Source: Methylocella sp. (GTDB lineage: Bacteria > Pseudomonadota > Alphaproteobacteria > Rhizobiales > Beijerinckiaceae). From it: DNA of 64,000 nt. The notes under the pieces were generated by a model. It was not told the origin of the DNA, did not search any database, and saw only the letters and a program-made list of their open reading frames with translations. Positions 1-24,931 of the stretch are shown here, in pieces. How positions within the stretch are numbered: position 1 is the stretch's first letter; each line of letters begins with the position of its first letter. The position numbers and the translations under genes are program-made. The stretch lies in contig JBOHJQ010000001.1 of assembly GCA_050728655.1 (NCBI GenBank), positions 7,146 to 71,145 on the forward strand, written 5' to 3'.

Positions 1-1950
1 ACACAATCCCATTAAGATATAGGGGCCGCGCGGTTGCGCCTCGCGGATGAGGCGCACGTAATCGGTTGTGATCTCTTCCAGGCTGCGGCGGGGCAACGAA
101 CGAGGATGGCTGGGATCATACAGCTGAACACAAAGAAACGGCCGATCCGTTCCAATCCGTCGCGCGAGATTGTAATAGATCATCGTATTGTTGATGGCGA
201 TAATTGGCGTTTTGTTGCCGCGCGGTTGAACCTGGACAATGCTCCAAGGCTCCCGCGGCGTTTCGATCCTGGCCACATGGGCCACAAACTCTCGCACGGT
301 CGGCGCCTGAAAAAGGGTCATGACATCGATTTTGACGCCAAGGGTGCGCGCGACCTCGGTCATGAGCCGCATGGCCATCAGGGAATGCCCGCCGAGCTCG
401 AAGAAATTCGACGTGGGGCCGATTTCCGGAACATGAAGGACATCTTGCCAGATCGCTATCATTCTTGTTTCGGCATCGGTCGGCGCTCCGCTAGGCAGTG
501 CGCTTGGCGGCGGGCGCGATGCGTCGATCGGCGCAAAATCGTCGCGGGATTTGGGGCGAGCGATCCGGTCTCGAACTGGCGCAACCAGCGAGGACAATCT
601 CGCCTCGGGATTGGAAATAGCGTACTCGAAGGCGGCCATAAGGAATCCATGCAGCCGCTCGGCCGTTTGTCTTTCGAATAGGTCGGGCTTGTACTCCATC
701 GCGATCCGCCAGCCTTCCGGCCAATGCACCATGTAAAAATTGAAATCATAGAGCGCGCCGGAGGACAGCGACGGGAGGGCATTCAAGTAGAAGCCGCCGT
801 AGTCTTTATGATCCATGAGATCACGCAGGACGGTGAAATTGATGGAGATGAGCGGCGTGCGGCTGAGATCGCGCGGGGGATTGAGAACCTCGACTAGCTT
901 GTGGAAGGGCATCCGTTGGTGGATGAGCGCCTCCTGAACCGTTGCGTTCGCCCGGGCCAGGAATTCCGTGAAGGTCGGATCGCCGGACGCATCGAACCTT
1001 ATCACGAGATTGTTGAGGAAAACGCCGATCAAGTTCTCGATTTCGACCTCGTCGCGGCCGCCGATCTGAGTTCCGAAAACCACATCCGTCGCGCCGGTGT
1101 AGCGGTGCAGCATCGCCCCGATCACGGCGCAACCGAAGGCGAACGGCGTCAAATTGTGTTTGCGCGCGGCGTCTTCCAGCTTGTTCCCGAGCGCCGGCGG
1201 CAGACCGGCGGCGAGGATTTCGCCGCGATAGCTCGGCGCGGCCGGGCGCGCATGGTCTGAAACAATCTCGAAATAGGGTGCTCCCTCCAAATTGCGTTTC
1301 CAATAGGCAATCTGCGCCTCGAAGCCGGCACTGGCGAAATATTCCTTCTGCCAGCGGCAATAGTCGCCGTATTGCAGCGGCAGCTCGGGCAGATCGTAAG
1401 CGCGGCTGGCCTCCAGCGCCTCGGCGATCGTGCCAAATTCATGGGCGAGGAGGCGGATGCACCAGCCGTCGAAGGCGATCTCATGCGTGGTCAACAGTAA
1501 AAACCCGTGATCGGCGGACAGGCGCAGCAAGGTCACCCGGAACAGCGGCAATTGTCCAATGTCGAACGGCACGTGCGCCTCGCGGCGGCCCAACGCCATG
1601 GCTTCATCGAGCCGTGTTTCCTCGGGAAACGCCGTCAGATCGACAACCGACAAATGGAAATCGAGGTGGCTGGCGACTTCCTGCATGGGTTCGCCGTCCT
1701 TTTCGAAGAACCTCGTGCGCAGGATCTCGTGCCGCTCGATGATCGTCTGAAAGGCTCGCTCGATTGTCGCGGCGTTGAATCGCCCCTTCAGCTCCCAACG
1801 CAGGGCGATGTTGAGAACCGAACCTCCAGGGCTCAGCGCTTGGATGAACCAGCACCGCTGCTGCGACGACGACAAGGGAAATAACAGTTCGTCGCTCGGC
1901 TTCGTCTCCGGGTCTGGCAATTGATGATCCCCCTCCATCGTCATTTCCAT
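1..1950 (-). CDS. NRPS terminal module, 3'-truncated by the window edge: condensation (C) - PCP - start of thioesterase (TE). No adenylation domain.
   Basis: The reverse frame is open from nt 1950 to nt 1, so it is absent from the ORF track. My translation runs MEMTMEGDHQLPDPETKPSDELLFPLSSSQQRCWFIQAL...IERHEILRTRF...LLLTTHEIAFDGW (C-domain motifs). It continues ...TRMIAIWQDVLHVPEIGPTSNFFELGGHSLMAMRL (PCP, Ser codon at 382-384), then ...KTPIIAINNTMIYYNL...AQPRGPYILMGLC (TE start). The ATG at 1950 lies 2 nt after the TGA of the upstream gene. Confidence 0.85.
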   Translation of the reverse strand, partial: MEMTMEGDHQLPDPETKPSDELLFPLSSSQQRCWFIQALSPGGSVLNIALRWELKGRFNAATIERAFQTIIERHEILRTRFFEKDGEPMQEVASHLDFHLSVVDLTAFPEETRLDEAMALGRREAHVPFDIGQLPLFRVTLLRLSADHGFLLLTTHEIAFDGWCIRLLAHEFGTIAEALEASRAYDLPELPLQYGDYCRWQKEYFASAGFEAQIAYWKRNLEGAPYFEIVSDHARPAAPSYRGEILAAGLPPALGNKLEDAARKHNLTPFAFGCAVIGAMLHRYTGATDVVFGTQIGGRDEVEIENLIGVFLNNLVIRFDASGDPTFTEFLARANATVQEALIHQRMPFHKLVEVLNPPRDLSRTPLISINFTVLRDLMDHKDYGGFYLNALPSLSSGALYDFNFYMVHWPEGWRIAMEYKPDLFERQTAERLHGFLMAAFEYAISNPEARLSSLVAPVRDRIARPKSRDDFAPIDASRPPPSALPSGAPTDAETRMIAIWQDVLHVPEIGPTSNFFELGGHSLMAMRLMTEVARTLGVKIDVMTLFQAPTVREFVAHVARIETPREPWSIVQVQPRGNKTPIIAINNTMIYYNLARRIGTDRPFLCVQLYDPSHPRSLPRRSLEEITTDYVRLIREAQPRGPYILMGLC

Positions 1951-1952
1951 TG

Positions 1953-4900
1953 TCATCCCGATGCCCCGGCGCGGCGCCTGAAACTTTGCAGCGAGGGCGC
2001 CGCATTGCTCGGCGCGAGCAGAGAGTCCTCCGGCCGGTCATTCGCGGCCCGCGCCAATTCGGCAATCGTCGGATGCCGCATCAGCTGCGCCGCATCGAGG
2101 CCGAGGCCCTGCTGCCGCATCCGCGCCGCGATGCGGAATAGGTCGATGGAATCCGCCCCGAGCGCGAAGAGATTATCGTGAATGCCAATCTCGCCCGTTT
2201 GCAGAACTTCGCCCCAAATCGTCGCGAGCTTGGCTTCGAGGGGTGTCTGGGGCAACACAATGACTCGCTCCGGTAGCGCCTGCGCGGGATCGGGTCGCGG
2301 CAGCGCCTTGCGGTCGATCTTGCCGTTCTGGGTGCGGGGTAGCGCGTCGAGACGCAAGACCTGCGACGGCACCATGTAATCCGGCAATTCTTCGCGCAAT
2401 TTGGTTCGTAGCCCGCTCATGCTCTCGACGCTGCCTTCGGGCGCGGCGATATAGCCGACGAGGTCGCCGCCACGCAAAACCGCAGCCGCTTCCGGGCGGC
2501 CGGAAACACGCCGCAGGGCATCTTCGACATCGCCAAGCTCGATGCGGAAACCGCGCAATTTGATTTGGCTATCGGCGCGTCCGAGCAGCTCGAAGCGACC
2601 GTTCGCCAGACAGCGTGCGCGATCGCCAGTGCGATAGAGGCGCCCGCTCGCGCCGCTAGAAGACGGATTTTCGGTGAAGCTTTGCTGGGTGAGCGCTTGA
2701 TTTTTATGATATCCCCGCGCGAGCCCCGCGCCGGCGATGCAAAGCTCTCCGGCAACCCCGATTGCCGCCGTATTTCCCGCCGCGTCGAGGATACAGATCC
2801 TCGTGTTCGCGATCGGCCTGCCGAAATCGATCGCGCCGCCGGTTTGCCGTTGCGCCAGCGACCAGATCGTCGTTTCGGTCGGGCCGTACATATTCCACAG
2901 CTCGCCCGATCCAAGATCCTCGGCGAGTTTCCGGTCGAGCGCCTCGCCGCCGCACAGGATTTTGAGCCCCTTCGGATTGAGTCCCGCTTCCAGCAATACC
3001 CGCCATAGGGCCGGGGTGGCCTGCATCATCGTTGTCGAGGTGCGGGTGATCAGCGCGGCCAAGGAAAACGGGTCCATGACATCGGCCCGGCTCGCGATCG
3101 CGAGCTCGGCGCCAATCGTCAACGGCAAGAAGATTTCAAGAGCGGCAATATCGAAACAAGGCGTCGTCACCGCGAGGAAGACATCGGCGGCGCTAATGCC
3201 GGGCGATTGCCGCATCGCAGTCAAGAGGTTCACGACCGAGCGATGCTCGATATCGATGCCCTTTGGCCGGCCCGTCGAGCCGGAGGTGAAGATGCGATAC
3301 GCGAGATCGGTTGGACGCACCCGCGGAAGCGGCGGCAGTTGTTGTTCGGCCGAGTCCGCGCCGGCTTCGCCAATGCCGATGCAAATCGGGATCGCCGCTT
3401 TGATGCCGTCTTCGAGCGTTGCCGAAGTCAAAGCGATCTTAACATCGGCCTCGGAAACGATCGCGTGGATGCGCGCGGGCGGATAGATCGGATCGAGCGG
3501 AACATAGGCGCCGCCCGCCTTGAGGACGGCGAGCATGGCGACGGCCAGCTCCGCCGAGCGGTCGAGATAAATCGCGACCGGCGTTTCGTGTGCGACTCCG
3601 GCGGCAAGCAACCGCCAAGCCACGCGATCCGCGCGCATTATGAGCTCGCGATAGGTGAGGGTCGTGTCTTCGAAGCGGACCGCGACGGCGTCCGGCGTAG
3701 CCGCCGCCTGCAAATCGATCAATTCGTGAATGGCGAGATCCGGGATGGGACAATCCGGCCCCGCGAGGGCGCCATGCAGCGCCTGCTCCTCCGCCTGGGT
3801 CAGCATCGGCAGCCGCGCGGCCTCCCCGTCCATGTCGCCGGCGATCGCTTCGAGCAGCGTCCGGTAATGGCCGATCCAACGCGCGATGGTTGCCCGCTCG
3901 AACAAGTCCGTGCTGTAATCGCAATCGATGATCAGGCCGTGATCCTCCGCGACGACATTGAAAAACAGATCGAAATTCACAAACCGCTTGGGATTGGCGT
4001 CGGTCGAGACGGCGAGATCCTGGAAGGGAAGATTTTGCCCGATCCGCTCCAAATTGAATTGCGCTTCGATCAAAGGAAGCCGGTTAATCTCCCGCGGCAT
4101 GTCGAGCGCCCGAACGAGGGACCCGAAAGTGTAGCTTTGATGATCGGCCGCATCGAGAAGAAGCTGCTGAGTCTTGCGCGCGGCCTCGAGGAAGGTGACA
4201 TTGCTGGAGAACTGGGCTCGCAACGGCAGGAAGTTGACGCAATGGCCGACGAGAGGCCCTTCGCCGTGCAAGCTCTGGCCGGCGGTCGGAATGCCGGCAA
4301 CGACGTCGGTTTGTCCGCTCAAGCGGGCAAGCACCACCTGATAGGCGGTCAACAGCACGGCGAACAAGGTACAGCCGTTGCGCGCGGCCGCTTGCTTTAC
4401 GCGGTCGAACAGGGGAGCGTCGATCGTCCCGCGCAGCGTATCGCCGCGGAAACTCTTAAGCGCCGGGCGCGGATGATCGAGCGGTAGGGCCAAAGGCTCC
4501 GGCACTTGCGCGAATTGGTGCAGCCAATAGGTCTCCGCCTCCGGCTGCACCGCGCCGTGGCGCACCGCATAGTCAACGAAGCTGTGCGCTTGCGGCAGAT
4601 TGGCGGTGGCTCCGCTTAGGCGGGCCGAATAGAGCGTCCCAAGTTCCTCCAAGAGGATGTTCATCGACCAGCCATCGCAGACGATGTGATGGGCGGTCAT
4701 CACCAGCTTATGGCGGTCTTGGCCATGGTCCGGCACCAAGGTGAAGCGAATGAGCGGTCCATTGACCAAATCAAAGGGAGTCGCGGCCTCGCTTTCGATA
4801 ACATCGGCAAGACGTTTATCGAGAGTCTCATCCTTGCCGGCGTCGGCGATAGTGAAGGCCAGCGGTGCCGCGGGCATCACGGTAAAGCCCTCGCCCGCCG

Positions 4901-7900
4901 GCGCGAACCGGATGCGAAGCGCCTCGTGGCGCTGCACCAAGTCGCGTGCCGCTTTGCGAAGGGCGCGGGTGTCGAGGTTGCCGCGCAAATCGAGTGTGAC
5001 CGATTCGTTGAAGGCGCAGGAAGCGGCGTCGCCGAGTTGGGCGCTGAGCCAAATTTCCATTTGGCTTTCGGTCAACTGGCCTTGGCGCGCGGCAGATTCC
5101 GGCGTCCGCCCGAAAATGCCGGCGGCCATCATCTGTGCCGAAGCCGCATCGAAAGCCGCGACGATTTTCGATAGATCGGCATCGTCGTGGGTGGTCGTCA
5201 GGAAACAGGGGAAGCCTTCGCGGATATGAATGCCCTGTTCGCGTAGCACGTAATAGAAGAGCGACGCGAAATGATGTTCGGCGGGGAATTTGACGAAGAA
5301 GATCGAGCCGAAATGATGAATTTCGGCCGGCACGCCATGGCGCTCGAAGACGCCGTTAAGGTCGTCCACGAGACGTCCGGTACGCTCGGACAAATTTTCC
5401 AGCAGGCTTGGCCCGGCTGCTTTTAGATGCTTCAAAACCGCGGCAGTGGCGGCGAGCGTCAGCGGGTGGCGCACGAACGTGCCGGCGAAGAAGGTCACTC
5501 CGACGGCCGGATAGGAATCGTCGCCATATTGCCAGAACCCGCCGTCGAGAGCGTCCATGAACGCGGCCTTGCCGGCCAAGATGCCGATAGGCATGCCGCC
5601 GCCGGCCACCTTGCCATAGGTGACCAGATCGGCGCGGATGCCGAACAAGGCCTGGACGCCGCCCGGATGGACGCGGAAGCCAGTAACGATTTCGTCAAAA
5701 ATTAAAACGGTCCCAGCCTTGGCGGTCAGGTCGCGCAACGCCTGCAGGAATTGGCGGGGACGCAAGTCCGGCCGCCGGCTCTGCACGGGTTCGACGAGGA
5801 CCGCCGCCAATTCATGGACGTGCCGTTCGAGCCAGGCGAGGCTCTCGGGGGTTCCGTAGTCCAGGATGGTGATGTTAGCGATGGATTCGGCGGGAATACC
5901 TGGAGCGACCGGGAATACCCGCGCAACCCCCTCGCGAACGCCGCCGCGCGCCAAAACTTCGTCGAATTGGCCGTGGTAGTCGCCTGAGAAATAGACGACG
6001 CGGTTGCGCCCGGTCACCGTTCGCGCGATCCGCATCGCCGCCATCACCGCTTCTGATCCGGTGTTGCAAAAGGTCACCCGCTCGTTGCCGGTGAGATCGC
6101 AAAGTAGCTTTGCCACCTCGCCGGCAAGAGGCGTTTGCGGGCCCAATTCAAAGCCCCGGTCGATTTGCGCGATAAGCGCTTCACGAACGAAATCGGGTGC
6201 GTGGCCGAAGGCAGTCTGACCAAAGCCGTTCAAGAGATCGATATAAATGTTGCCATCGACGTCCCAAAGTTTCGAGCCTTCGGAGCGGACGGTGACGATC
6301 GGGTAAACGATCTCCTTCCATTCCGGATTAAATCCCGAGGCAACCCGGGGATCGGCGAGCACCGCGCGCGATGCCTGGGTCATCTCCTTGGAACCGCGCG
6401 TGCGGTTTGCGTAGCGTTCGATCAGATCGGCGACAAAGCGGCGTTGCCCAGCGTCGAGAGCGGCATCGCGCGCTTGCGTGAACGGCTTGAAGGGGCCATG
6501 CGCCTCGGTAGGTTTTTTCTCCGTAATTGGCTTTGCTTGAACCGGTGCCGCTGCCTGCGGGCGTTGCCGGACGGCTGGGGCCGCCGCCGCGGCCAAAGGC
6601 GCCGCGCCGCCGATCTGCCGTAAGGTTTCGAGCTGCCGGTTGATGAGGTCGGTCATGCTGGCAAGCTGCGCCGCCATGACTTGCTCGATGCCCTGTCCCG
6701 GCAAGGATGCGGCCACAAAACCGGATGGGGGGCTTGCGGCTGGAAGAGGCAGAGTGGAAACGGCCTCGGCCGGGCCTGGCGCAGCGATGGCGAGCTCGGC
6801 CGCAAATTCCGTCGCCGTTTGGTTCAAATGCTCGGCCACCGCATCGACCGTTCCAAGTTCGCCCATCATCTGGCGGAAGCTGACGGCGACATTGAAGCGG
6901 GTCTTGATGGCTTGGCTCGCCTGCGTGAGGAACAGCGAATCGAAGCCGAGTTCGAGGAAACTTGTGCCGCGCGGCGCGTCGGTGACGTCGATGCCCGAAA
7001 GATTTTCAAGGAGCGCCGCGAGTTCGGCCCGGATCGCTGCTTGGCGGTTGGGCATCTCGGGTTGTTGCGTGATCCCCCCATTGGGAGCCGGTTGCTGTGC
7101 TGTGTTCGTCATGGCGGTAATTTGATTCCCTTCAAAAGGCATGGTTGCAATGGTGCTGGCGCTTGGGGCATCGATAAAATAGCGCGACCGCTGGAAAGGA
7201 TAAGTAGGCAGGATGACGCGCCGTCGAAGTGCGCCATCATGCAACGCGCGCCAAACCGGCGCCGCTCCCGCGGTCCATAGGCGTCCGAGCGTATCGAGAA
7301 AGACCGCGTCCGCGGCGCGTTCCTCGAAGGGGTCCGGGAGCGAAGCGGCGATCAGAGGCGCCCCGCGCGCCGCACCGTTTTGGCGGGCGAGGCTCGTGAG
7401 TGTCCGCCCCGGGCCGGCCTCGATCAGGATTGGCGAAACTGGCTCGGCGAGGCACGCAAGTGCCGCAGCGTAGCGCACCGTCTCACGGCAATGCCGCGCC
7501 CAATAAAGCGGGTCCGTCGCTTGATCACTCGTTATCCACGTTCCCGACATGGAGGAGACGTAAGGGATCCGGGGGGGGCTTAGGGGAATCCGCGCCAACA
7601 ATTCTGCTAGCGGTTCGATCACCGGATCGACCATCGCCGAATGAAATGCATGCGAGGTCCGCAATCGGCGGCAGCCGGCGCCGCGGGCGGTTAGCGTCGC
7701 CTCGAAGGCGTCGATTGCCGGATGCGGCCCGGCGACCACGCAGACGGCATTGGCGTTGACCGCCGCGATCGAGAGATTGCCGGGCAGGCAGTCCTTAAGT
7801 TCGGGCTCCGCCAGCATGACGGCGAGCATCGCTCCTTCCGGCAGCTCCTGCATCTTGGCGCCGCGCGTGGCGACTACCATCAGGGCGTCTTCGAGCCGCA

Positions 7901-9827
7901 TCACGCCACTGAGCGTCGCGGCGACGAATTCGCCAATGCTGTGGCCCAGCATTGCGGCGGGCGCAAAGCCCAGGCTCCGCCATAACTCCGCGACTGAGAA
8001 GCTGACGCTGAACAGGGCCGGCTGGGCGAGCGCGGTCGCCTGGAGTCGCGGTCCTGCTTCCAGCGGGTCGCCGAAAAGGACCTCCCGCAGGTCGAGGCCA
8101 AGCAAAGGTTGCAAAAACGAAGCGCATTGGTCGAGCGTGCGCGCGAAAACCGGATAACGCCGGTAAAGGCCCTGACCCATGCCAGGATATTGCGCGCCCT
8201 GGCCGGGAAACAGGAATGCAAGCTTTGGCGGGGATGCGGCCGCCGTTTCTGCTTTGCCGCGGCCGCCGAGTTTCTCTATCAGGTCGCGCCTTTCCTTGGC
8301 GACAGCGGCGAACCGCTTGGCGAAACCGCGCCTGCCGGTTTGCAAGGTGGAGGCGATGTCGGCAATGCTCTGCTCCGCGTGCGTTTCGACATGTGCCGCG
8401 AGGCGGCCACGAGCTTCCTCCAAGGCATTGTCGTCGCGGGCCGACAGGACAATGAGATGCGCGGCCTGGTCATCTTGGGCGGTAGCGGCGGCGGCCGGGA
8501 TCGCGGGCGCTTCCTCGATGATCACATGGACGTTGGTGCCGCCTACGCCCGCCGCATTGACCCCGGCGATACGTGGTTTGGCGCCGCGCGGCCAAGGCCG
8601 CAACTCGGCATTGACGAAGAACGGGCTCTCCTCAAGGCCGAGTTTCGGGTTTGGGGTCTTGAAATGAAGCGTTGCAGGCAGGGTTTCATGTTCGAGCGCA
8701 AGAATGGTTTTGATGAGCCCCGTGACTCCGGAGGCAATGTCGAGATGGCCAATGTTCGTCTTGACCGTGCCGATCGCGCAAAATCCCTTGCGATTGGTGG
8801 TCGCCCCAAACGCCTTGGTGAGGCCGGCGATTTCGATCGGATCGCCAAGCGGGGTCGCGGTGCCGTGGCACTCCACATAGGAAATGGAGTCGGCGGCGAT
8901 ATCCGCCACGGCGTGAGCGAGGGCGATTACCTTGGCTTGGCCATCGCTGCTCGGCGCCGTAAAGCCGACTTTCGTCGCCCCATCGTTGTTGACAGCGCTG
9001 CCGCGAATGACCGCGCGGATCTGGTCGCCGTCGGCCAAGGCGGCGTCGAGACGCTTCAACAGCACCACGCCGGCGCCGCTGCCGAACACCGTCCCCGCCG
9101 CTTCGGCGTCGAAGGTGCGGCAGTGACCATCCGGCGAAACCATGCCGCCCTCCTGATAGAGATAGCCGCGCTTCTGCGGGAAGGTGATCGACACCCCGCC
9201 CGCGAGCGCCATATCGGCGCGATAATCGAGCAGGCATTGGCAAGCTTCGGCGACGGCAAGAAGCGAGGTCGAACACGCCGATTGCACGGTAAAGGCGGGA
9301 CCGCGCAGATCGAGCTTGTAAGCGGTCCGCGTCGCGATGAAATCCGCGCCGTTGCCGACGAGCGTCGGAAACTCGCCGACTTGATAATTGCCGGTCATAT
9401 TTTCGAGCCGCTGCCGGTCCTTCAGCACGTTATAGAGAAGGTAGGTATCGAAGCTGCTCCCGGCGTAAACCGCGATATCCCCAGGGAAAGCAGCCGGGTC
9501 ATAACCGGCGCTTTCCAGCGCCTCCCAGGCGATTTCCAGAAAGACCCTTTGCTGCGGGTCGGTCAGCTCCGCCTCGCGCGGCAGGAAGTTGAAGAAGCCG
9601 GCGTCGAACAGCTCGACTCCGTCCAAAATCGATCTTGCGCGTACGTAGCCAGGCTGGTTTTGCACCGAACGGCCGTAGGCGTCCTCCAGCTCCTCCGGAG
9701 GAAAATGGGTGATGGATTCCACGCCGCGGCGGAGATTGTCCCAGAACGCCTCGAGCGTCGACGCGCCAGGGAAGCGGCCGGCCATGCCAATCACGGCTAC
9801 GGAGGGAAGAGCATCTTGGGCGGACAT
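1953..9827 (-). CDS. Hybrid PKS-NRPS megasynthase: KS-AT-ACP-aminotransferase(AMT)-C-A-PCP
   Basis: 2624-aa ORF. KS (aa ~8-437, nt ~8517-9806): SACSTSL, ECHGTATPLGDP, NIGHLD. AT (aa ~535-835, nt ~7323-8225): FLFPGQGAQY, GHSIGEF, HAFHS (malonyl-type). ACP (aa ~930-1000, nt ~6828-7040): LGFDSLF. Class III PLP aminotransferase (aa ~1150-1565, nt ~5133-6380): CNTGSEA, LIFDEI, TYGKVAGGGMP. C (aa ~1583-2000, nt ~3828-5081): HHIVCDGWS. A (aa ~2030-2510, nt ~2298-3740): LAYRIFTSGSTGRPKG, NMYGPTE, YRTGD, GRADSQIKLRGFRIELGDVE, NGKIDRKAL. PCP (aa ~2525-2595, nt ~2043-2255): FALGADSIDL. Confidence 0.95.
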   Translation of the reverse strand: MSAQDALPSVAVIGMAGRFPGASTLEAFWDNLRRGVESITHFPPEELEDAYGRSVQNQPGYVRARSILDGVELFDAGFFNFLPREAELTDPQQRVFLEIAWEALESAGYDPAAFPGDIAVYAGSSFDTYLLYNVLKDRQRLENMTGNYQVGEFPTLVGNGADFIATRTAYKLDLRGPAFTVQSACSTSLLAVAEACQCLLDYRADMALAGGVSITFPQKRGYLYQEGGMVSPDGHCRTFDAEAAGTVFGSGAGVVLLKRLDAALADGDQIRAVIRGSAVNNDGATKVGFTAPSSDGQAKVIALAHAVADIAADSISYVECHGTATPLGDPIEIAGLTKAFGATTNRKGFCAIGTVKTNIGHLDIASGVTGLIKTILALEHETLPATLHFKTPNPKLGLEESPFFVNAELRPWPRGAKPRIAGVNAAGVGGTNVHVIIEEAPAIPAAAATAQDDQAAHLIVLSARDDNALEEARGRLAAHVETHAEQSIADIASTLQTGRRGFAKRFAAVAKERRDLIEKLGGRGKAETAAASPPKLAFLFPGQGAQYPGMGQGLYRRYPVFARTLDQCASFLQPLLGLDLREVLFGDPLEAGPRLQATALAQPALFSVSFSVAELWRSLGFAPAAMLGHSIGEFVAATLSGVMRLEDALMVVATRGAKMQELPEGAMLAVMLAEPELKDCLPGNLSIAAVNANAVCVVAGPHPAIDAFEATLTARGAGCRRLRTSHAFHSAMVDPVIEPLAELLARIPLSPPRIPYVSSMSGTWITSDQATDPLYWARHCRETVRYAAALACLAEPVSPILIEAGPGRTLTSLARQNGAARGAPLIAASLPDPFEERAADAVFLDTLGRLWTAGAAPVWRALHDGALRRRVILPTYPFQRSRYFIDAPSASTIATMPFEGNQITAMTNTAQQPAPNGGITQQPEMPNRQAAIRAELAALLENLSGIDVTDAPRGTSFLELGFDSLFLTQASQAIKTRFNVAVSFRQMMGELGTVDAVAEHLNQTATEFAAELAIAAPGPAEAVSTLPLPAASPPSGFVAASLPGQGIEQVMAAQLASMTDLINRQLETLRQIGGAAPLAAAAAPAVRQRPQAAAPVQAKPITEKKPTEAHGPFKPFTQARDAALDAGQRRFVADLIERYANRTRGSKEMTQASRAVLADPRVASGFNPEWKEIVYPIVTVRSEGSKLWDVDGNIYIDLLNGFGQTAFGHAPDFVREALIAQIDRGFELGPQTPLAGEVAKLLCDLTGNERVTFCNTGSEAVMAAMRIARTVTGRNRVVYFSGDYHGQFDEVLARGGVREGVARVFPVAPGIPAESIANITILDYGTPESLAWLERHVHELAAVLVEPVQSRRPDLRPRQFLQALRDLTAKAGTVLIFDEIVTGFRVHPGGVQALFGIRADLVTYGKVAGGGMPIGILAGKAAFMDALDGGFWQYGDDSYPAVGVTFFAGTFVRHPLTLAATAAVLKHLKAAGPSLLENLSERTGRLVDDLNGVFERHGVPAEIHHFGSIFFVKFPAEHHFASLFYYVLREQGIHIREGFPCFLTTTHDDADLSKIVAAFDAASAQMMAAGIFGRTPESAARQGQLTESQMEIWLSAQLGDAASCAFNESVTLDLRGNLDTRALRKAARDLVQRHEALRIRFAPAGEGFTVMPAAPLAFTIADAGKDETLDKRLADVIESEAATPFDLVNGPLIRFTLVPDHGQDRHKLVMTAHHIVCDGWSMNILLEELGTLYSARLSGATANLPQAHSFVDYAVRHGAVQPEAETYWLHQFAQVPEPLALPLDHPRPALKSFRGDTLRGTIDAPLFDRVKQAAARNGCTLFAVLLTAYQVVLARLSGQTDVVAGIPTAGQSLHGEGPLVGHCVNFLPLRAQFSSNVTFLEAARKTQQLLLDAADHQSYTFGSLVRALDMPREINRLPLIEAQFNLERIGQNLPFQDLAVSTDANPKRFVNFDLFFNVVAEDHGLIIDCDYSTDLFERATIARWIGHYRTLLEAIAGDMDGEAARLPMLTQAEEQALHGALAGPDCPIPDLAIHELIDLQAAATPDAVAVRFEDTTLTYRELIMRADRVAWRLLAAGVAHETPVAIYLDRSAELAVAMLAVLKAGGAYVPLDPIYPPARIHAIVSEADVKIALTSATLEDGIKAAIPICIGIGEAGADSAEQQLPPLPRVRPTDLAYRIFTSGSTGRPKGIDIEHRSVVNLLTAMRQSPGISAADVFLAVTTPCFDIAALEIFLPLTIGAELAIASRADVMDPFSLAALITRTSTTMMQATPALWRVLLEAGLNPKGLKILCGGEALDRKLAEDLGSGELWNMYGPTETTIWSLAQRQTGGAIDFGRPIANTRICILDAAGNTAAIGVAGELCIAGAGLARGYHKNQALTQQSFTENPSSSGASGRLYRTGDRARCLANGRFELLGRADSQIKLRGFRIELGDVEDALRRVSGRPEAAAVLRGGDLVGYIAAPEGSVESMSGLRTKLREELPDYMVPSQVLRLDALPRTQNGKIDRKALPRPDPAQALPERVIVLPQTPLEAKLATIWGEVLQTGEIGIHDNLFALGADSIDLFRIAARMRQQGLGLDAAQLMRHPTIAELARAANDRPEDSLLAPSNAAPSLQSFRRRAGASG

Positions 9828-11713
9828 TAACTGCCTGTGGACGAGTTCGCGTGGACGATCGGCGAACGGGCGCGGTTCTGGCGCGCGCGCCGTTGGAGTG
9901 CCGCATGCGCCGCGGCTTGCGAAGTGGCGTCGGCCGCTGACGCTCCGGACAGTCGGCCGTGCAAAAGGCGGATTGTTGGCAGGTCGAACAAATCCTGGAT
10001 CGAAATCTGTCCCGGGAAAAGCCGTTCGACGTCGTCATACACACCAAGGAGCTGAAGGGAAGTGCCGCCGAGGTCGAAAAAGTTTTGGTTAACATCGACG
10101 GTTTCCAGCTGAAGGTGATGGCGCCACAAATCGATCAGCATGGCCTCGATTGGGGCGGCATAATGGGGGTCCGAGGATTTTTTCGCCCGCACGTTAGCGG
10201 CCATGTGGCTCAGGGCGAGGCGGTCGATCTTGCCGGTCTGGGTTAGCGGAAATTCGTCAACCATCTCCAGGCGCGCCGGGATCATGTGCGGCGGCAAATA
10301 GCTCGTGGCGGCCTCCCGGAAAGCCGCTTCCGTGAGGGAGGCGTCTTTGCGTGGAATGACGAAGGCGACAAGATGCTTTGCACCATCCGCCAGGGTGCAG
10401 GCGACAATGGCTATGTCCGTGAGCGGGAGTTGCCGCCGTAACACGATTTCCACATGTTCGGGCTCAATTCTGTAGCCATTCAACTTGAACTGGTTATCCA
10501 TGCGGCCGAGAAAATGCAGCAGGCCCGCCTGGTCGCGCCGGACGAGATCGCCGGTGCGGTAAAGCCGTTGCCCCGGACCTTGCGCGAAACGGTCCTCGAT
10601 GAATTTTTGTTGCGTGAGCTCGGGAGCGTTAAGATAACCGTGCGCGAGCCCAGTCCCGCCAACATAGAGCTGTCCCGCCGAGCCTTCGGGGACTAGGCGC
10701 ATTTCGTCATCGAGAATACGCAAAACCGTGCCCGCGATCGGCCGGCCGATAGGCACTGGCGTATCGACCGGCAAATCCGGCGGCGCCGTGAAAGTCGTGG
10801 TGAAGGTCGTGTTCTCGGTCGGTCCATAAGCGACGATGAAACGACCGGGACCGAGAAGCCGTGCCGCCGTGGCGGCATGCGTGGGCGACATGACGTCGCC
10901 GCCTGCGATTAAATAGCGAAGCTTTCGCAATGGCTCCGGACACTGATCGATCATAAGGTTGAAGAGACCGCTCGTAAGAAACAGCGTGGTCACGCCTTGT
11001 TCCTCGATCGCGGCGGCTATCTCGCTGAAGCTGAGCAAGCCCGCTCCTGGAACCACCAGCTCGGCACCGTTGAGTAGCGCGCCCCAAATCTCGAATATCG
11101 AAGCATCGAAGCCTAAAGGCGACAACTGCAGAAAAATTTGATCGTCGGTAAACCGCATATAGCCGGGATTTTTGACCAGCCGAACAATGGCGCGATGCGG
11201 GATAACGACGCCTTTCGGCTCTCCCGTGGAGCCGGAGGTGAACATGACGCAGGCGGGATCCGAGCCGGCGATTTTCGCGGCCTCGCCCCGCCGGCCGGCG
11301 GGCACCGCCGATGGCCCGGCATCACCATCGATCACCGGCACCGCCGCGGCGAGTTGCGGGAAACGCCGCAGCGTTGCACCGTTCGATACGACACATTTCA
11401 ATTTGTGCCGCTGGATAACATCGAGAATGGCTTGCGGCGGGCTGCGTGGGTCGAGCGGCACGAACGCCCCGCCTGCTTTAAGCACCGCCAGGAAGGACGT
11501 GACGGTGGCCAACGAGCGGTCGAGGAGGATGCCCGCGAGCGCGCCTTGTTGAATTCCAGCGGCGGTGAGCCGGTCGCAAAGCGCGTCTGTCCGGGCATCG
11601 AGGCCGGCGTAGGTCAATCTTTCGGTGCCGCTCCGGACCGCGAAAAACCCGGGCTTTTCCGTGGCCTGAATTTGAAAACATTGGGGCACATCATCGAAAT
11701 CGTTTCCAGACAT
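9827..11713 (-). CDS. Stand-alone NRPS adenylation-PCP didomain protein (probable loading module)
   Basis: 628-aa ORF with A-domain core motifs LKAGGAFVPLDP, MFTSGSTGEPKG, FDAS, AYGPTE, QLYVGGTGLAHGY, YRTGD, GRMDNQFKLNGYRIEPEHVE and TGKIDR, followed by the PCP motif FFDLGGTSLQLL. Its TAA stop shares one nt with the ATG of the megasynthase (TAATG at 9825-9829). GAGG sits 8 nt upstream of the ATG. Confidence 0.93.
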   Translation of the reverse strand: MSGNDFDDVPQCFQIQATEKPGFFAVRSGTERLTYAGLDARTDALCDRLTAAGIQQGALAGILLDRSLATVTSFLAVLKAGGAFVPLDPRSPPQAILDVIQRHKLKCVVSNGATLRRFPQLAAAVPVIDGDAGPSAVPAGRRGEAAKIAGSDPACVMFTSGSTGEPKGVVIPHRAIVRLVKNPGYMRFTDDQIFLQLSPLGFDASIFEIWGALLNGAELVVPGAGLLSFSEIAAAIEEQGVTTLFLTSGLFNLMIDQCPEPLRKLRYLIAGGDVMSPTHAATAARLLGPGRFIVAYGPTENTTFTTTFTAPPDLPVDTPVPIGRPIAGTVLRILDDEMRLVPEGSAGQLYVGGTGLAHGYLNAPELTQQKFIEDRFAQGPGQRLYRTGDLVRRDQAGLLHFLGRMDNQFKLNGYRIEPEHVEIVLRRQLPLTDIAIVACTLADGAKHLVAFVIPRKDASLTEAAFREAATSYLPPHMIPARLEMVDEFPLTQTGKIDRLALSHMAANVRAKKSSDPHYAAPIEAMLIDLWRHHLQLETVDVNQNFFDLGGTSLQLLGVYDDVERLFPGQISIQDLFDLPTIRLLHGRLSGASAADATSQAAAHAALQRRARQNRARSPIVHANSSTGS

Positions 11714-11809
11714 CGAATCGCCTCAAAAATACGTCGTCGACAAAAAACGGCTGTGAACATAGTCTAACGCTTTAGTCTTTGAAACCCCCCAAATGGGGGA
11801 GGAGGCAAC

Positions 11810-11930
11810 AAAAACGGCATGTTTATGTTGCTTAGTTTTATGATGTATCATGAAATGCAATATTCATCAAGCTAGAATTAAGGCTAAAAAATTACGGTCT
11901 CTGTTATTTATTTTTCATTTGTTGTAAGTA
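11810..11930 (-). promoter_or_regulatory. Strongly AT-rich block upstream of the NRPS-PKS operon (candidate promoter or silencer-binding region)
   Basis: The run gtttatgttgcttagttttatgatgtatcatgaaatgcaatattcatcaagctagaattaaggctaaaaaattacggtctctgttatttatttttcatttgttgtaagta contrasts sharply with the GC-rich surroundings. It lies ~100-200 nt upstream of the first gene of the operon. No specific -35/-10 assignment was made. Confidence 0.3.
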
Positions 11931-12477
11931 ACGGGCACCCGCTCGATCTTCCAGGCATCCGTTTTGCCGTCGCTGGCGACCGACACCTCGCGTAAAAAAT
12001 CCCTCGCGAATCATGTTCTTAGGAGACTCCGGACGACGTTCTCCGAATTTGCCTTGGCGGCGGAATGCCCGAGGAATGCAGCGAAGCTCTTGGCGGCCCG
12101 GACCTCGCCTATCTGGTTCTGCGGGGGAATTTGTCCTTTTGTTAAAATTGGGTCATAAAAGTTTCGTTGCTACCTCATATAGGGAGTTTTGACAACGACA
12201 GCAGGCTTTCGCCCCTGGACCGGGCATCCGGTTTGCAGCGCCAGCGCTTGTCCGCAAATCGGAACGTGGCCCAATTTGGCACCGAGGCTGAAACGCCTGA
12301 GCGTCACGATCCTGCCCCCAGGTCCGTTTTTCCGTTGCCGAGTCGCACCGCGATCATCAAGACTTAACTGAAGCGCATCTTCGCAAGTCCTTGAGGATCT
12401 CAAGCGTCAATCGTCCCTAGCACCGCCGAGGGCGAGGATTCAAGCTCCAATTCGAAGGCGGAAGATGTGCATCGGTA

Positions 12478-12715
12478 AGCAGGGGCTGAAGCTACCGCAG
12501 CCATCTCGGTCGCCGTTGAACGTGCTATAGCGTGTACCCTGGCAACGATCGAGGACGATCAGATTTTCGTGCAGCCGATGTTGAATGAAGCGTCGATGGC
12601 CGGCGTGGCCGTCACTCGCGAACTACATGGTGGTGGACCCTACGTGGTCATTAATTTGGACGATCGCTCCGGGCGCTGCGATCTTGTGACGTCCGGAACC
12701 GGCCTATCAGCAAGG
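12478..12715 (+). pseudogene. Fragment resembling the PEP/pyruvate-binding (PPDK_N-type) domain of a PEP-utilising enzyme
   Basis: The in-frame translation is AGAEATAAISVAVERAIACTLATIEDDQIFVQPMLNEASMAGVAVTRELHGGGPYVVINLDDRSGRCDLVTSGTG. As I recall the family consensus, it resembles the segment mAvlVQpMv...sGVafTrd..tg.pYyvInyDD.sG.td.vTSG of PEP-synthase-like proteins. A stop lies immediately upstream, there is no start codon context, and the similarity ends at ~12715. Confidence 0.45.
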
Positions 12716-12734
12716 CGCGCTACCGCCCGCGGTG

Positions 12735-12905
12735 ACGGCAAGGGTCACGGTGGAAGAAACCTCACCAATCGGTTGGGAGAGATTTGCTGGGCCATGCGGC
12801 GTAGTCCTCGGAATGCGCAGCCTTGGCATGTCGGCGCCGATGAAGATCGCCGAGAGTTTCGGGCTCGGGGCCGAGCATGTGGCGCCGCCGCCAAAAGCTC
12901 CCGGC
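12735..12905 (+). pseudogene. tkt: Relic of the 3' end of a transketolase gene (last ~55 codons only)
   Basis: ARVTVEETSPIGWERFAGPCGVVLGMRSLGMSAPMKIAESFGLGAEHVA matches the transketolase C-terminus pattern (..vavEA....gW.ryvG..G.viGm..FGaSAP...l...FG.t.e.Vv). Nothing of the preceding ~600 aa is present. Confidence 0.6.
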
Positions 12906-12965
12906 GCGGCGCGGCGGGCGGAACAAGCGCGCAGGATGATACGTTTCGCGCATAGGAGAACGCAG

Positions 12966-13994
12966 ATGCAACTTGGCATGATCGGACTTGGCCGAATGGG
13001 TGCAAATATGGTGACGCGGCTCATAAGGGCCGGTCACGAATGCATCGTTTACGACAGCCACCCGGAACCGGTGCGGGAACTGGTCAAGCAGGGGGCCGTG
13101 GGCTTGACCAGTCTGGCGGCGCTCGTGCAGAGTCTGTCAAAGCCCCGGGCCGTGTGGCTGATGGTGCCGGCCGCGGCAGTCGATCCCGTGCTTGGTTCCC
13201 TGACACCGCTGCTCGAATCGGGCGACATCGTGGCCGATGGGGGGAACTCCTACTACCATGACGACATCCGCCGCGCGACTCGGCTTAAGCAAGCTGGAAT
13301 TCATTATGTCGACGTCGGCGTAAGCGGAGGAGTATGGGGTTTGGAGCGTGGCTACTGCCAAATGATCGGCGGCGAGCCCGAGATAGTACAGTATCTCGAT
13401 CCGATCTTTCGCGCTTTGGCGCCGGGAGTGGCCGCCGCGCCCCGCACCCCAGGCGCAACTGGCGATCCAAAGCAGTCCGAATGTGGCTATCTCCATTGTG
13501 GTCCGAATGGCGGCGGTCATTTTGTCAAAATGGTCCATAATGGCATCGAATATGGCATCATGGCCGCCTATTCAGAAGGTTTGAACATTATCAAGAACGC
13601 CAATGCCGGCCGTGTGAGCCGCGCGGCAGATGCGGAGACGACGCCGTTGCGTAATCCAGAATTCTATCGATTCGCGTTCGACATCGCTGAGATCGCCGAG
13701 GTCTGGCGGCGCAGCAGCGTCATCGGCTCATGGTTGCTGGATCTTACCGCCGCGGCGCTACGCAAGAATTCGGAGCTGACGAGCTTCGCAGGACATGTCT
13801 CGGATTCCGGCGAGGGACGCTGGACGCTGCAGGCAGCGATCGACGAAGGAGTCCCGGTCCCCGTGATCAGCGCCGCCTTATTTGGGCGTTTCGAGTCCCG
13901 CGGGCTTGCCGACTATGCGGACAAGCTGCTGTCGGCAATGCGCTACGAATTCGGCGGCCACGTCGAGAAACCCGCAAGCACGGAAACGACTTGA
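12966..13994 (+). CDS. gnd: 6-phosphogluconate dehydrogenase, decarboxylating (short Gnd/YqeC-like form)
   Basis: I place the start at MQLGMIGLGRMGANMV (Rossmann GxGxxG) rather than the track start 12732, which fuses it to the tkt relic. Supporting motifs are DGGNSYY, VDVGVSGGVWG, GHFVKMVHNGIEYG and a C-terminal YEFGGH. Confidence 0.9.
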   Translation: MQLGMIGLGRMGANMVTRLIRAGHECIVYDSHPEPVRELVKQGAVGLTSLAALVQSLSKPRAVWLMVPAAAVDPVLGSLTPLLESGDIVADGGNSYYHDDIRRATRLKQAGIHYVDVGVSGGVWGLERGYCQMIGGEPEIVQYLDPIFRALAPGVAAAPRTPGATGDPKQSECGYLHCGPNGGGHFVKMVHNGIEYGIMAAYSEGLNIIKNANAGRVSRAADAETTPLRNPEFYRFAFDIAEIAEVWRRSSVIGSWLLDLTAAALRKNSELTSFAGHVSDSGEGRWTLQAAIDEGVPVPVISAALFGRFESRGLADYADKLLSAMRYEFGGHVEKPASTETT

Positions 13995-15383
13995 ATGCGC
14001 CACGCGGCCTCCGATGCGATCGTCTTCTTTGGTGCCACGGGCGACCTTGCCAAAAAGCAGATCTTTCCCGCATTGCAGGGCCTGGCTCGCGACGAAGGAC
14101 TGGATGTGCCGATCATCGGTGTTGCCAAGGCGGGATGGTCGCTCTCCCAATTGCAGGCGCGCGCCAAGGAGAGCATCTCCAGCCAGGGCAGTCTCGACGC
14201 CAAAGCCTTTGCCAAGCTCACCAGTCTGCTCCGCTATGTTGACGGCGACTACAATGATCCATCAACCTATGTGCGGCTGCGCCAGGAACTAGGCGAAGCA
14301 AGGCGACCGCTGCATTATCTCGCCATTCCTCCGAGCCTGTTTGCGATAGTGGCGGAAGGGCTCGCAAAACAAGGCGCCGGAACGGACGCACGCCTCGTTG
14401 TAGAAAAGCCTTTCGGCCACAATAGAGAGTCGGCACGCCAGCTCGATCGCATTCTCAACCGCTTCTTTCCAGAAGAAAACATCTTCCGGATCGATCACTA
14501 CCTCGGCAAGGAACCGGTGCAGAATATACTTTATACGCGATTTGCGAATTCGATGTTCGAACCGATCTGGAACCGCACCTACGTCAACAGCATTCAGATC
14601 ACCATGGCCGAGAGCTTCGGGGTGCAAGATCGAGGCAAATTCTATGATGAGACAGGCGCCATTCGCGATGTATTTCAGAACCACATGCTGCAGGTGCTCG
14701 CTAGCCTGACCATGGATCCGCCGACTGGTGAGGAATCCGACGCCGTGCGCGAGCAGAAGGCGGGTTTGCTGAAGGCTCTGCGACCGCTCGATGCGGCGCA
14801 TGTCGTTCGCGGTCAATATGCGGGCTATCAATCGGTGCCGGGCGTGAAGGCCGGCTCGACCGTCGAGACATTTGTCGCGGCCAAACTTTTCATCGATTCC
14901 TGGCGGTGGGCCAGCGTGCCGATTTACATTCGCGCCGGCAAGGCGCTCCCGGTGACGGCCACGGAGATAATGGTGGATTTCAAAAGACCACCGCGAGAAA
15001 CCTTCGCGGAGATTATTCCCGCCGCGTCGGGCCATATGCGGCTGCGGATCAGCCCAGACGTCACCATCGCGCTGGGTGTGCGGGTCAAACATCCAGGCGA
15101 GGGCATGAGTGGCGAGGACGTCGAGCTGATCCTGACCGAGCAGACGACGGCTTTCATCCCGCCCTATCAGCGTCTGCTTGGCGACGCTATGCATGGAATC
15201 GGGGATCTTTTCGGCCGGCAGGACATTGTCGACGCTCAATGGCGCATCGTGGAGCCGGTCCTGGACGAGGAGGCGCCGCCGAATACCTACGCAAAGGGAA
15301 GCTGGGGACCGGAGGAGGCCAGCCGCCTGATCGGGCCGGACGGCCCGTGGCACGATCCGGAGCAAGCGGTCCTGCGCCCATGA
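13995..15383 (+). CDS. zwf: Glucose-6-phosphate 1-dehydrogenase
   Basis: VFFGATGDLAKKQIFPAL (NADP site), EKPFGH and RIDHYLGKEPVQN (active-site motif). The ATG directly follows the gnd TGA. Confidence 0.95.
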   Translation: MRHAASDAIVFFGATGDLAKKQIFPALQGLARDEGLDVPIIGVAKAGWSLSQLQARAKESISSQGSLDAKAFAKLTSLLRYVDGDYNDPSTYVRLRQELGEARRPLHYLAIPPSLFAIVAEGLAKQGAGTDARLVVEKPFGHNRESARQLDRILNRFFPEENIFRIDHYLGKEPVQNILYTRFANSMFEPIWNRTYVNSIQITMAESFGVQDRGKFYDETGAIRDVFQNHMLQVLASLTMDPPTGEESDAVREQKAGLLKALRPLDAAHVVRGQYAGYQSVPGVKAGSTVETFVAAKLFIDSWRWASVPIYIRAGKALPVTATEIMVDFKRPPRETFAEIIPAASGHMRLRISPDVTIALGVRVKHPGEGMSGEDVELILTEQTTAFIPPYQRLLGDAMHGIGDLFGRQDIVDAQWRIVEPVLDEEAPPNTYAKGSWGPEEASRLIGPDGPWHDPEQAVLRP

Positions 15384-22277: not shown

Positions 22278-22774
22278 TTCATGCCGGCGGGGCGATGCCT
22301 TCGGACAGGCTTGGCGCGCAAGGCGAATTTGCGAAAGCATCCGAGAGCGCCAAGACTCTTGCCAAAGGGCGACAGGTCTTTGGGTTCGCAAGAATAAACC
22401 ACGCCACTCAAAAGCGCACGGCCGTCCGGCACGCGCGCTCTCTGCTCTCGGCCGCGCCGCCCGCCGCAAACTCTCCGCCGCAAGAGCTTTTCTCCAGTCC
22501 CTTCAAGCCTTGCTCGACATAGGCGCCGGGCGCATCCCGGAAAATCTAACCTCTTCTACAACCTGCGCGTGAGAATCGGGTCCTATGATTGGGCCTGCTG
22601 GGGTGCGGGCACAATCGCCCTGCGCGCGGCCAATGACCGGCGCGGCCGCGACGAAATGCCTTCTGGTTAACCGATTGACGATTGACATCACTACATTATC
22701 TTGTTAAATAGTCACGCCAGAGGTCAGGCTAAATGTAACGAAATCATGATGTTACCGTGACTGCGAAGGTTGCC

Positions 22775-23884: not shown

Positions 23885-24069
23885 CTATTCAGGTAGCATA
23901 GCTAACGTGTTTTGCCTGGATGCATGACTTGACCCGGCCCGGGCGCTTGTGGATCGATTTACGGATCGACGAGGTGGCAGCGACGCGGTCGTCACGGGTC
24001 TTGGCGCGCGATTTGTTTTTGATCGTCGCTAGCTTCGCCTATTGGGTCTGAATCAATTGAGTCCGGACC

Positions 24070-24918: not shown

Positions 24919-24931
24919 TCCAGTTTTCCAT

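Follow-up and report, generated by a model that had tools for sequence, protein, structure and literature searches.

What is made by an assembly line that appears to prime a β-aminating polyketide module with an amino acid, and how does the chain leave through a terminal module without an adenylation domain? These questions are raised by an 11.7-kb locus at the left end of a 64,000-nucleotide stretch of Methylocella sp. DNA (GenBank assembly GCA_050728655.1, contig JBOHJQ010000001.1, positions 7,146 to 71,145 of the forward strand; the whole stretch is referred to here as the window). Three minus-strand genes, g1, g2, and g3, encode a hybrid nonribosomal peptide synthetase-polyketide synthase (NRPS-PKS) with the order A-PCP / KS-AT-ACP-AMT-C-A-PCP / C-PCP-TE, where A is an adenylation domain, PCP and ACP are peptidyl and acyl carrier proteins, KS is a ketosynthase, AT an acyltransferase, AMT an aminotransferase, C a condensation domain, and TE a thioesterase. 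This order, set out in an earlier reading of the letters alone (the original prediction), was borne out by Pfam, and the open reading frames (ORFs) and the two junctions that led it to call the genes tightly coupled were exactly as claimed. The best explanation, to which we assign a probability of roughly 0.6, is that the locus is a four-gene orphan NRPS-PKS operon of an uncultured Methylocella/Methylocapsa-like member of the Beijerinckiaceae, in which Val or Ile would be converted to a diaminoacyl-Gly chain that is then off-loaded.

The extent of the operon was established from the window together with a second contig. g1 and g2 overlap in a TAATG, and the g2/g3 junction reads TGAcaATG (1948-1955). 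The start of g3 may lie 6 nt earlier, since an in-frame ATG at 1954-1956 overlaps the g2 TGA; the ORF list of Logan contig L001 places it there, as an ATGA overlap. One public contig, L001, encodes the exact g2 protein. It is identical to the window over the 16,488-nt overlap and reaches 2,322 nt past nt 1, so that g3 is complete on it (852 aa, C-PCP-TE, L001 14539-17097) and is followed, after a 229-nt gap, by a gene for a 432-aa alpha/beta hydrolase. On the right-hand side, a ∼1-kb AT-rich intergenic region parts g1 from divergent pentose-phosphate genes; no further gene upstream of g1 belongs to the cluster, and its boundary is at nt 11713. The cluster is therefore a four-gene operon of g1, g2, g3, and a predicted membrane-anchored serine hydrolase just past nt 1. 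The original prediction was right that the cluster runs on past nt 1, though for only ∼2.3 kb. All three ORFs are intact across the 11.7 kb, the Pfam E-values (1e-49 to 1e-87 for the domains) exclude chance matches, and the catalytic residues, mapped to window coordinates (Table 1), are all intact apart from exchanges of the C3 His and of the TE nucleophile, which is a Cys.

The KS and AT of g2 have the residues of a condensing, malonyl-using module. The catalytic codons of the KS lie at nt 9273-9275 (Cys185), 8865-8867 (His321), and 8745-8747 (His361), and its closest relatives in the PDB are KS domains from PKS and hybrid NRPS/PKS proteins, including ClbK, which are compatible with amino-acid priming, not decisive for it. 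In the AT, Ser630 is encoded at nt 7938-7940, and HAFH, a motif established as a mark of malonyl specificity, at nt 7641-7652. For the in-line aminotransferase, the original prediction had placed a class III pyridoxal 5′-phosphate (PLP) domain between the ACP and C domains at nt ∼5133-6380, likened the module to MycA, and proposed an HMM search as the check. Pfam did place Aminotran_3 (2e-49, aa 1176-1537, nt 5217-6302) between PP-binding and Condensation, and the TYGKVAGGGMP and HAFH motifs are present. The domain (aa ∼1117-1553) matched the solved MycA aminotransferase (6KFM) over its whole length with 452 bits (E 1.8e-134), whereas free-standing glutamate-1-semialdehyde aminomutases scored about 200 bits, at most 203; the PLP lysine Lys1406 (nt 5610-5612) aligned as LVTYGKVAGGG against LVTYGKIIGGG of 6KFM. 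Judged by this difference in score, the domain is a genuine MycA-type in-line aminotransferase, and the MycA-like logic of the module, with the aminotransferase between ACP and C, holds. MycA itself transfers the amine of Gln to an ACP-bound β-keto thioester, according to the passage of PMC3870968 that cites Aron et al. (2005).

We examined which unit the KS would accept. The g1 protein matched AMP-binding (aa 13-361, 4e-75), AMP-binding_C (aa 421-495), and PP-binding (aa 527-584); its A domain scored above the TIGR01733 cutoff for amino-acid adenylation (369 bits versus 317) and has Asp235 (nt 11105-11107) and Lys517 (nt 10229-10231). Specificity codes were extracted by MAFFT alignment to the GrsA-PheA fragment, for which the control returned the expected DAWTIAAICK. 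The code of A1 is DAFFIGATFK, compared to DAFFVGVTFK in close orthologues and DAFWIGGTFK in Methylocapsa aurea; by the codes in the literature, the last is the canonical Val code and that of A1 is Val/Ile-like. These data support the assignment of A1 as an amino-acid A domain of Val/Ile-like specificity. The strongest support for priming of the KS by g1 came from homologues in which the two are joined (homologous loci and proteins are cited below by our L and P numbers). Among the 120 best g2 homologues, over which fusions were counted, an A-PCP is fused directly ahead of the KS in 53, and Val-type codes were found in 53 of these 53. P0148 is a single chain of A-PCP-KS-AT-ACP-AMT-C-A-PCP, and the fused homologues include proteins of Bryobacteraceae, Steroidobacteraceae, Terrimicrobiaceae, Longimicrobium, and Pseudoxanthomonas. 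The earlier view that an amino-acid-type A domain feeds the KS is strengthened by the TIGR01733 score, the two residues, the code, and these fusions.

A different role for g1 has to be weighed against these fusions. Instead of priming the KS, or in addition to it, g1 might load PCP3 in trans, in the manner of SyrB1 or HMWP2, with the KS taking an acyl-ACP or acyl-CoA of primary metabolism and the product being an iturin-like β-amino acyl-Gly-Val/Ile lipopeptide. Such an arrangement would explain why g3 has no A domain, and A1 does resemble A domains of related termination modules (DALWLGGTFK in module 3 of P0190, DAFFLGITFK in the stand-alone paralogue P0094); in addition, g2 opens directly with the KS and shows no obvious docking region. 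We nevertheless regard it as improbable. The 53 homologues have their Val-type A-PCP N-terminal to the KS, g1 and g2 are coupled by the TAATG overlap, and the cluster contains neither a fatty-acyl-AMP ligase (FAAL) nor a stand-alone ACP. Furthermore, module 3 of the fused relatives has its own Gly A domain (L026, P0155), and C3 of the A-less forms is mostly without its catalytic His, which is unexpected if condensation with a trans-loaded residue were needed.

Downstream of the aminotransferase, A2 has the code DILQLGMIWK, the canonical Gly code of the literature, and in 92 of 96 g2 homologues the A domain that comes next after the AMT is of the Gly type. The second amino acid with which the chain had been predicted to be extended can, on this code, be named as Gly. 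PCP2 has the motif GADSI, though it would carry achiral Gly and precedes the atypical C3; GADSI is typical of carriers before epimerisation domains and GGHSL of carriers before C domains.

The terminal module encoded by g3 departs from the canonical form in three ways on which the original prediction made no remark: the lack of an A domain, an altered C motif, and a Cys TE. No A domain is present between C3 (end ∼aa 455) and PCP3 (start ∼aa 497), which are 38 aa apart, and the C3 motif HEIAFDG aligns with HHIVSDG of Txo2 such that the second, catalytic His is replaced by Glu. The other core motifs of C3 are apparently intact in our own reading of the translation. C3 is 71% identical to the distant orthologue of M. 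aurea and 56% to that of Methylobacterium, values equal to or above those of the other domains, and on this comparison C3 itself is not decaying. FFELGGHSL of PCP3 is identical in 15 of 15 loci aligned. In the TE, the nucleophile is Cys650 (GLCVSG); alignment pairs it with the catalytic Ser of 7crn (Ala in the 7dxo mutant) and with the Cys in GWCFGG of AB3403 (4ZXH). Asp677 and His814 lie past the window, on L001; the triad aligns to known TE triads, and Asp677 takes the canonical position I, 27 residues on from the nucleophile, as the Asp does in AB3403 and 7crn. PCP3 Ser and TE Cys-Asp-His are kept in more than 100 homologues, from Alphaproteobacteria and one gammaproteobacterium of the Steroidobacteraceae.

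We next compared the C3 motif with the state of the third A domain (A3) across 120 g3 homologues. A-less forms have HQ in 72, HE in 20, and HH in 9 cases, so that 92 of the 120 have HQ or HE, and nearly all 120 have a TE whose nucleophile is Cys. An active A domain was found in only five, all with HH and all stand-alone paralogues in other genomic contexts. A3 can be arranged as a series. It is active in L026, which has C(HH)-A(Gly)-PCP-TE(Cys), and dead in L027, where C(HQ) is followed by an A domain whose P-loop is destroyed and whose A8-A10 motifs are missing, and then by PCP-TE(Cys). A remnant of AMP-binding_C only is left in M. aurea, Methylocella tundrae, Beijerinckia indica, Methylobacterium, and L021; those of M. 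aurea, B. indica, and Methylobacterium accompany HQ, and their A10 lysine was read as lost. In the window's clade nothing of A3 is left; forms without A3 have HQ or HE, the window having HE. In a neighbour-joining tree HQ occupies deep branches and HE marks the window's clade; from this distribution, the motif position toggles among H, Q, and E after the death of A3. Comparing the remnants with the A1, A2, and A3 subdomains was uninformative about the lost specificity.

Taken together, these data favor a reading in which C3-PCP3-TE is retained in a noncanonical role, passing the chain to PCP3 and the TE without extending it, because C3 and PCP3 are conserved and not decaying. A more specific version, which we advance tentatively and think doubtful as it stands, is that C3 acts as a PCP-to-PCP translocase through thiol-thioester exchange, or as a docking scaffold, and passes diaminoacyl-Gly to the Cys TE, yielding a small vicinal-diamine peptide. 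Such a product could bind metals or sit attached to the cell surface. L025 (Chelatococcus reniformis, 2413-6739) has an A-less C(HQ)-PCP-TE, a hydrolase, and a phosphopantetheinyl transferase (PPTase) without adjoining A-PCP and KS-AMT genes, so the off-loading unit can exist apart from the assembly line.

Module 3 might instead still extend the chain, with A2 charging both PCP2 and PCP3 and C3 condensing despite its His-to-Glu exchange, to give diaminoacyl-Gly-Gly for release by the Cys TE. Relatives provide examples of Gly-Gly, as two A domains of P0155 read DILQLGMVWK and L026 has the Gly-type terminal module described above. A single A domain serving several carriers also has a precedent, as in HMWP2 of yersiniabactin biosynthesis, and the conservation of C3, PCP3 Ser, and the TE triad, like the apparently intact remaining motifs of C3, would suit an extending module. 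On the other side, 6 of 6 proteins with an active A3 (the five stand-alone paralogues among the 120, and L026) keep HH, and the forms without A or with a dead one mostly have HQ or HE, which suggests that canonical condensation is no longer selected. We therefore judge an extending module 3 to be unlikely, and prefer the non-extending hand-over.

The same exchanges could be taken as signs of decay, with the terminal module, and the cluster along with it, a relic from which no defined product comes. Module 3 has lost its A domain and has Glu in place of the catalytic His of its C domain, the hydrolase is pseudogenised in some lineages, and there is no PPTase in the 64-kb window. However, none of the three ORFs is broken in 11.7 kb and no catalytic residue other than that His is missing, the A-less form with its PCP Ser and TE Cys-Asp-His has been kept in over a hundred homologues, and C3 is as conserved as the other domains, or more so, in distant comparisons. 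A relic is accordingly very improbable.

Two further ideas about g3 were rejected. Direct descent of g3 from stand-alone C-A-PCP-TE paralogues (M. silvestris BL2 P0094 and P0068) was set aside, because their genomic surroundings are unrelated and they branch from inside the family tree. The Asp at position I and the predicted C-terminal Gly argue against a TE of the ObiF/SulM type forming a β-lactone or β-lactam. The TEs of ObiF1 and SulM share the Cys nucleophile with g3, but their Asp is at position II, after strand β7, and they cyclise a C-terminal β-hydroxy or β-amino residue to a four-membered ring (PMC11298585); the C-terminal residue predicted here is Gly, whereas theirs has a β-nucleophile. 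AB3403, the stand-alone C-A-PCP-TE of Acinetobacter baumannii (4ZXH), has a Cys nucleophile and a position-I Asp as here. AB3403, ObiF1, and SulM modules all have an A domain, and the g3 module has none. In P0077 (L021/L022, 10001-14173) and P0086, two tandem C-type domains stand ahead of an A remnant, PCP, and TE, and both of their motifs are altered (HSIICDG or HGMISDG, then HQ); in L021/L022, further NRPS/PKS genes with formyltransferase, luciferase-like, and methyltransferase domains come after the hydrolase.

The preferred route is built on the domains present and their active-site residues, with the chemistry inferred. A1 would activate Val or Ile and load it onto PCP1, and the KS would condense the aminoacyl-PCP1 with malonyl-ACP, supplied by the malonyl-type AT, to a 4-amino-3-oxoacyl thioester. 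The AMT would then replace the β-keto group by an amine, for which Gln is the probable donor, as it is for MycA, to give a 3,4-diaminoacyl thioester, which C2 would join to Gly on PCP2. Lastly, C3(HExxxDG)-PCP3-TE(Cys650/Asp677/His814) would off-load the chain, for which the non-extending hand-over is favored; alternatively, A2 (Gly) or A1 (Val/Ile) would supply one further residue in trans. Release might occur by hydrolysis or by lactamisation through a free amine. The β,γ-diamino acid intermediate of the original prediction, to which a second amino acid is added, is in this way supported by residues and domains and can tentatively be written with Val/Ile and Gly.

Several observations weigh against this route. 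The A1 and A2 assignments were made by comparison with Stachelhaus codes from the literature. The starter varies in the family, as L003, the closest full-length relative, and B. indica open with C-A-PCP, the A domain of L003 having a Thr code. By our own reasoning, the free α-amine of the starter could attack the thioester and release the chain by itself as a γ-lactam or tetramate. HH occurs in at least five A-less lineages of the neighbour-joining tree, and the change from His to Gln or Glu only correlates with the loss of the A domain. The hydrolase is fragmentary or absent in five loci (L005, L007, L008, L012, and L016). The 64-kb window contains no PPTase, MbtH, or transporter gene, as had been noted for its visible part, and no cupin gene. 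Finally, our literature search found no product, expression, or biochemical data for any family member.

We compared the cluster with known systems. MycA (mycosubtilin) and ItuA (iturin) of Bacillus likewise have KS-AT-ACP-AMT-C-A-PCP in one polypeptide, and the shared logic is the conversion of a β-keto thioester to a β-amino acyl unit that is joined by an amide to the next amino acid; a condensing KS (Cys-His-His), a malonyl-type AT, and an in-cis ACP are MycA-type features found here too. The primer of MycA is an N-terminal FAAL with an ACP, whereas here it is a separate Val/Ile-type A-PCP, and MycA feeds a seven-residue cyclic lipopeptide line, whereas only a Gly module, the 852-aa C-PCP-TE, and a hydrolase gene follow here. 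In McyE (microcystin) and NdaF (nodularin), an in-line class III aminotransferase between ACP and C also makes the β-amino group. On established knowledge of these systems, the cluster is like them in this placement; their modules receive a long polyketide chain from an upstream PKS, of which there is none here, given the boundary at nt 11713. Relative to a canonical C-A-PCP-TE termination module, g3 lacks the A domain and HHxxxDG and keeps the carrier Ser and the TE triad, with Cys for Ser. BioF and BioA offer an analogy in chemistry only: an amino acid is extended by C-C bond formation to an α-amino ketone, which a class III aminotransferase turns into a vicinal diamine (7-keto-8-aminopelargonate to 7,8-diaminopelargonate), but these enzymes are free-standing and act on free acids, and carrier-bound thioesters are expected here.

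The architecture is less novel than had been implied, because a 2013 survey already lists similar layouts and the family has members in many taxa. Milano et al. (2013) catalogued uncharacterised A-CP-KS-AT-CP-aminotransferase proteins, among them A-CP-KS-AT-CP-PLP of Pedobacter heparinus and C-A-CP-KS-AT-CP-PLP-C-A-CP of Salinisphaera (PMC3870968). These and the environmental family share their domain grammar with the cluster, which differs in that the loading module is a separate gene, A1 has DAFFIGATFK versus DAFWLGGTFK, and A3 is wholly lost. No characterised product was found: our literature search returned only fatty-acid-primed lipopeptides and surveys, with no characterised amino-acid-primed AMT line and no Beijerinckiaceae product, and the AMT pathways found start from fatty acids (e.g., flavipulchrins) or differ otherwise. 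To our knowledge, then, the amino-acid-primed AMT architecture has been catalogued but not characterised. No named NRPS/PKS equivalogue of NCBIfam scored above its cutoff, with only generic domain models matching, and a near-identity plasmid search with nt 1-11713 returned only 100-nt matches to NRPS core motifs, with no plasmid-borne near relative.

In species-representative genomes, g3 relatives are all from Beijerinckiaceae, namely Methylocella and Methylocapsa metagenome-assembled genomes (MAGs), two upland soil cluster alpha (USC-alpha) MAGs, and M. aurea KYG. A broader g3 protein search adds M. tundrae, M. silvestris, B. indica, B. mobilis, Methylobacterium sp. Leaf104, Ancylobacter, Chelatococcus, Caulobacterales, and Hyphomonadaceae. 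Bryobacteraceae, Steroidobacteraceae, Terrimicrobiaceae, and Longimicrobium have fused Val-malonyl(AMT)-Gly megasynthases of 45-55% identity. The family spans Beijerinckiaceae, including the USC-alpha MAGs, Acidobacteria, Verrucomicrobia, and Gammaproteobacteria.

The fourth gene encodes a hydrolase with the nucleophile motif GFSLGG (Ser), weak matches to PAF-AH, PETase, and DLH models, and the esterase 5YAE as its best solved relative. One or two N-terminal hydrophobic segments (transmembrane or signal anchor) suggest a periplasm-facing, membrane-anchored protein, whose probable role is to act on the product after export, or an accessory one. Its gene lies after g3 in loci of Beijerinckiaceae and in the distant L021, L023, L024, L025, L026, and L027, with a 4-nt overlap in L024, and in L020 it is near a stand-alone paralogue. 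Since it widely adjoins g3 yet is fragmentary or absent in five loci, we regard it as a frequent but dispensable partner. A role as SyrC/CmaE-like aminoacyl shuttle for PCP3 was rejected, as the nucleophile is Ser, the relatives are esterases, PAF-AH, and cutinases, and the protein is apparently extracytoplasmic. In M. aurea, a RuBisCO-like protein gene lies directly after g3, in the hydrolase's place. Accessory genes that recur elsewhere in the family encode an Sfp-type PPTase and a Cupin_8/JmjC-like protein, neither of which is in the window; the latter is beside the cluster in three distant members, L016 (M. aurea, 13212-15337), L026 (1191-2093), and L027 (7483-8409), and the three are 31-40% identical between loci.

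Table 1. Positions of the cluster features in the window
Feature	Position (nt)	Strand	Basis
g1, loading module A-PCP, separate gene	9827-11713	minus	ORF, 628 aa; Pfam; TIGR01733
A1 adenylation domain, code DAFFIGATFK	10229-11677	minus	MAFFT alignment to GrsA-PheA
PCP1, Ser551 in LGGTSL (Ser codon nt 10061-10063)	9962-10135	minus	Pfam PP-binding aa 527-584
g1/g2 TAATG stop/start overlap	9825-9829	minus	Read from sequence
g2, KS-AT-ACP-AMT-C-A-PCP hybrid megasynthase	1953-9827	minus	ORF, 2624 aa; eleven Pfam families in order
KS, Cys185/His321/His361	8661-9803	minus	Pfam ketoacyl-synt (2e-69) and Ketoacyl-synt_C
AT, malonyl-type, GHSIGE and HAFH	7380-8216	minus	Pfam Acyl_transf_1 (6e-52)
ACP, Ser964 in LGFDSL (codon nt 6936-6938)	6828-7040 (approximate limits)	minus	Pfam PP-binding
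AMT, class III PLP aminotransferase domain, Lys1406	5169-6479	minus	Aminotran_3 and 6KFM alignment
C2 condensation domain, canonical HHIVCDG (nt 4671-4691)	3777-5078	minus	Pfam Condensation aa 1584-2017, 2e-84
A2 adenylation domain, code DILQLGMIWK	2319-3713	minus	Alignment to GrsA-PheA; AMP-binding 4e-80
PCP2, Ser2560 in LGADSI (codon nt 2148-2150)	2046-2231	minus	Pfam PP-binding aa 2533-2594
g2/g3 junction	1948-1956	minus	TGA 1953-1955; ATG 1948-1950; alternative in-frame ATG 1954-1956
g3, terminal module C-PCP-TE	1-1950	minus	ORF cut by window edge; first 650 of 852 aa
C3 condensation-type domain, HEIAFDG (nt 1465-1485)	586-1881	minus	Pfam Condensation 8e-87; Txo2 alignment
PCP3, Ser523 in LGGHSL	274-462	minus	Pfam PP-binding aa 497-559, 5e-20
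TE, N-terminal part; Cys650 codon nt 3-1	1-228	minus	Pfam Thioesterase cut by window edge; alignments
Upstream intergenic region, conserved AT-rich block, right cluster boundary	11714-12731	minus	Divergent pentose-phosphate genes from 12732

Upstream of g1, the minus strand has an AT-rich stretch (11714-11960) in a region of ∼60% GC, with blocks that are conserved across orthologous loci. One reads TAGCCT..TTCTAGCTTGAT.AATATTGA, and a second is a CCCCCATTTGGGGGG palindrome, the sequence of which differs from locus to locus in an apparently compensated way; these blocks could be an operator or promoter. RNAalifold gave a consensus of -3.8 kcal/mol for the 5′ leader with no real covariation and no convincing structure, promoter and terminator scans returned counts at chance level and confirmed no promoter, and Rfam and tRNA scans of the window found no RNA genes. 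On the far side of this region, the 420-aa ORF at 12732-13994, which opens with GTG, has at its N-terminus, before the 6PGD domains, a match resembling the C-terminal part of transketolase; the same gene is called with 342 aa on L001, and the longer version probably reaches too far, into the remnant of a transketolase gene or an upstream region. Farther away, at 47028-52589 (minus), a DnaE2-type error-prone polymerase (1091 aa) lies beside an ImuB-like IMS-family protein (546 aa), and an overlapping 253-aa ORF is found upstream; the arrangement resembles an imuA-imuB-dnaE2 mutagenesis cassette. Polysaccharide genes (GT4, GT2, methyltransferase, UDP-glucose dehydrogenase, and UDP-GlcNAc 2-epimerase) occupy 22757-31500, ∼10 kb from the cluster, and the family members in L020, L024, L025, and L027 are flanked by glycosyltransferase, flippase, or polysaccharide-export genes. 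This neighborhood may be a coincidence or a hint of a cell-surface role.

If the proposed route is true, the cluster would provide the first characterised case of a line whose embedded MycA-type aminotransferase works on a β-keto thioester derived from an amino acid. It would produce a carrier-bound β,γ (vicinal) diamino acid, a route to diamine building blocks for pathway engineering. Its early steps extend MycA logic in a natural way, and the question worth pursuing is the role of the terminal module and the purpose of the small diamine product. The A3 series from active through dead and remnant to none, coupled to replacement of the C-domain His, could show what a non-condensing condensation domain does. 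With its four genes, the compact operon is a tractable entry to a large orphan family found across soil phyla and in hard-to-culture USC-alpha methane oxidisers; the USC-alpha members of this Val-malonyl(NH2)-Gly family are atmospheric-methane-oxidising bacteria.

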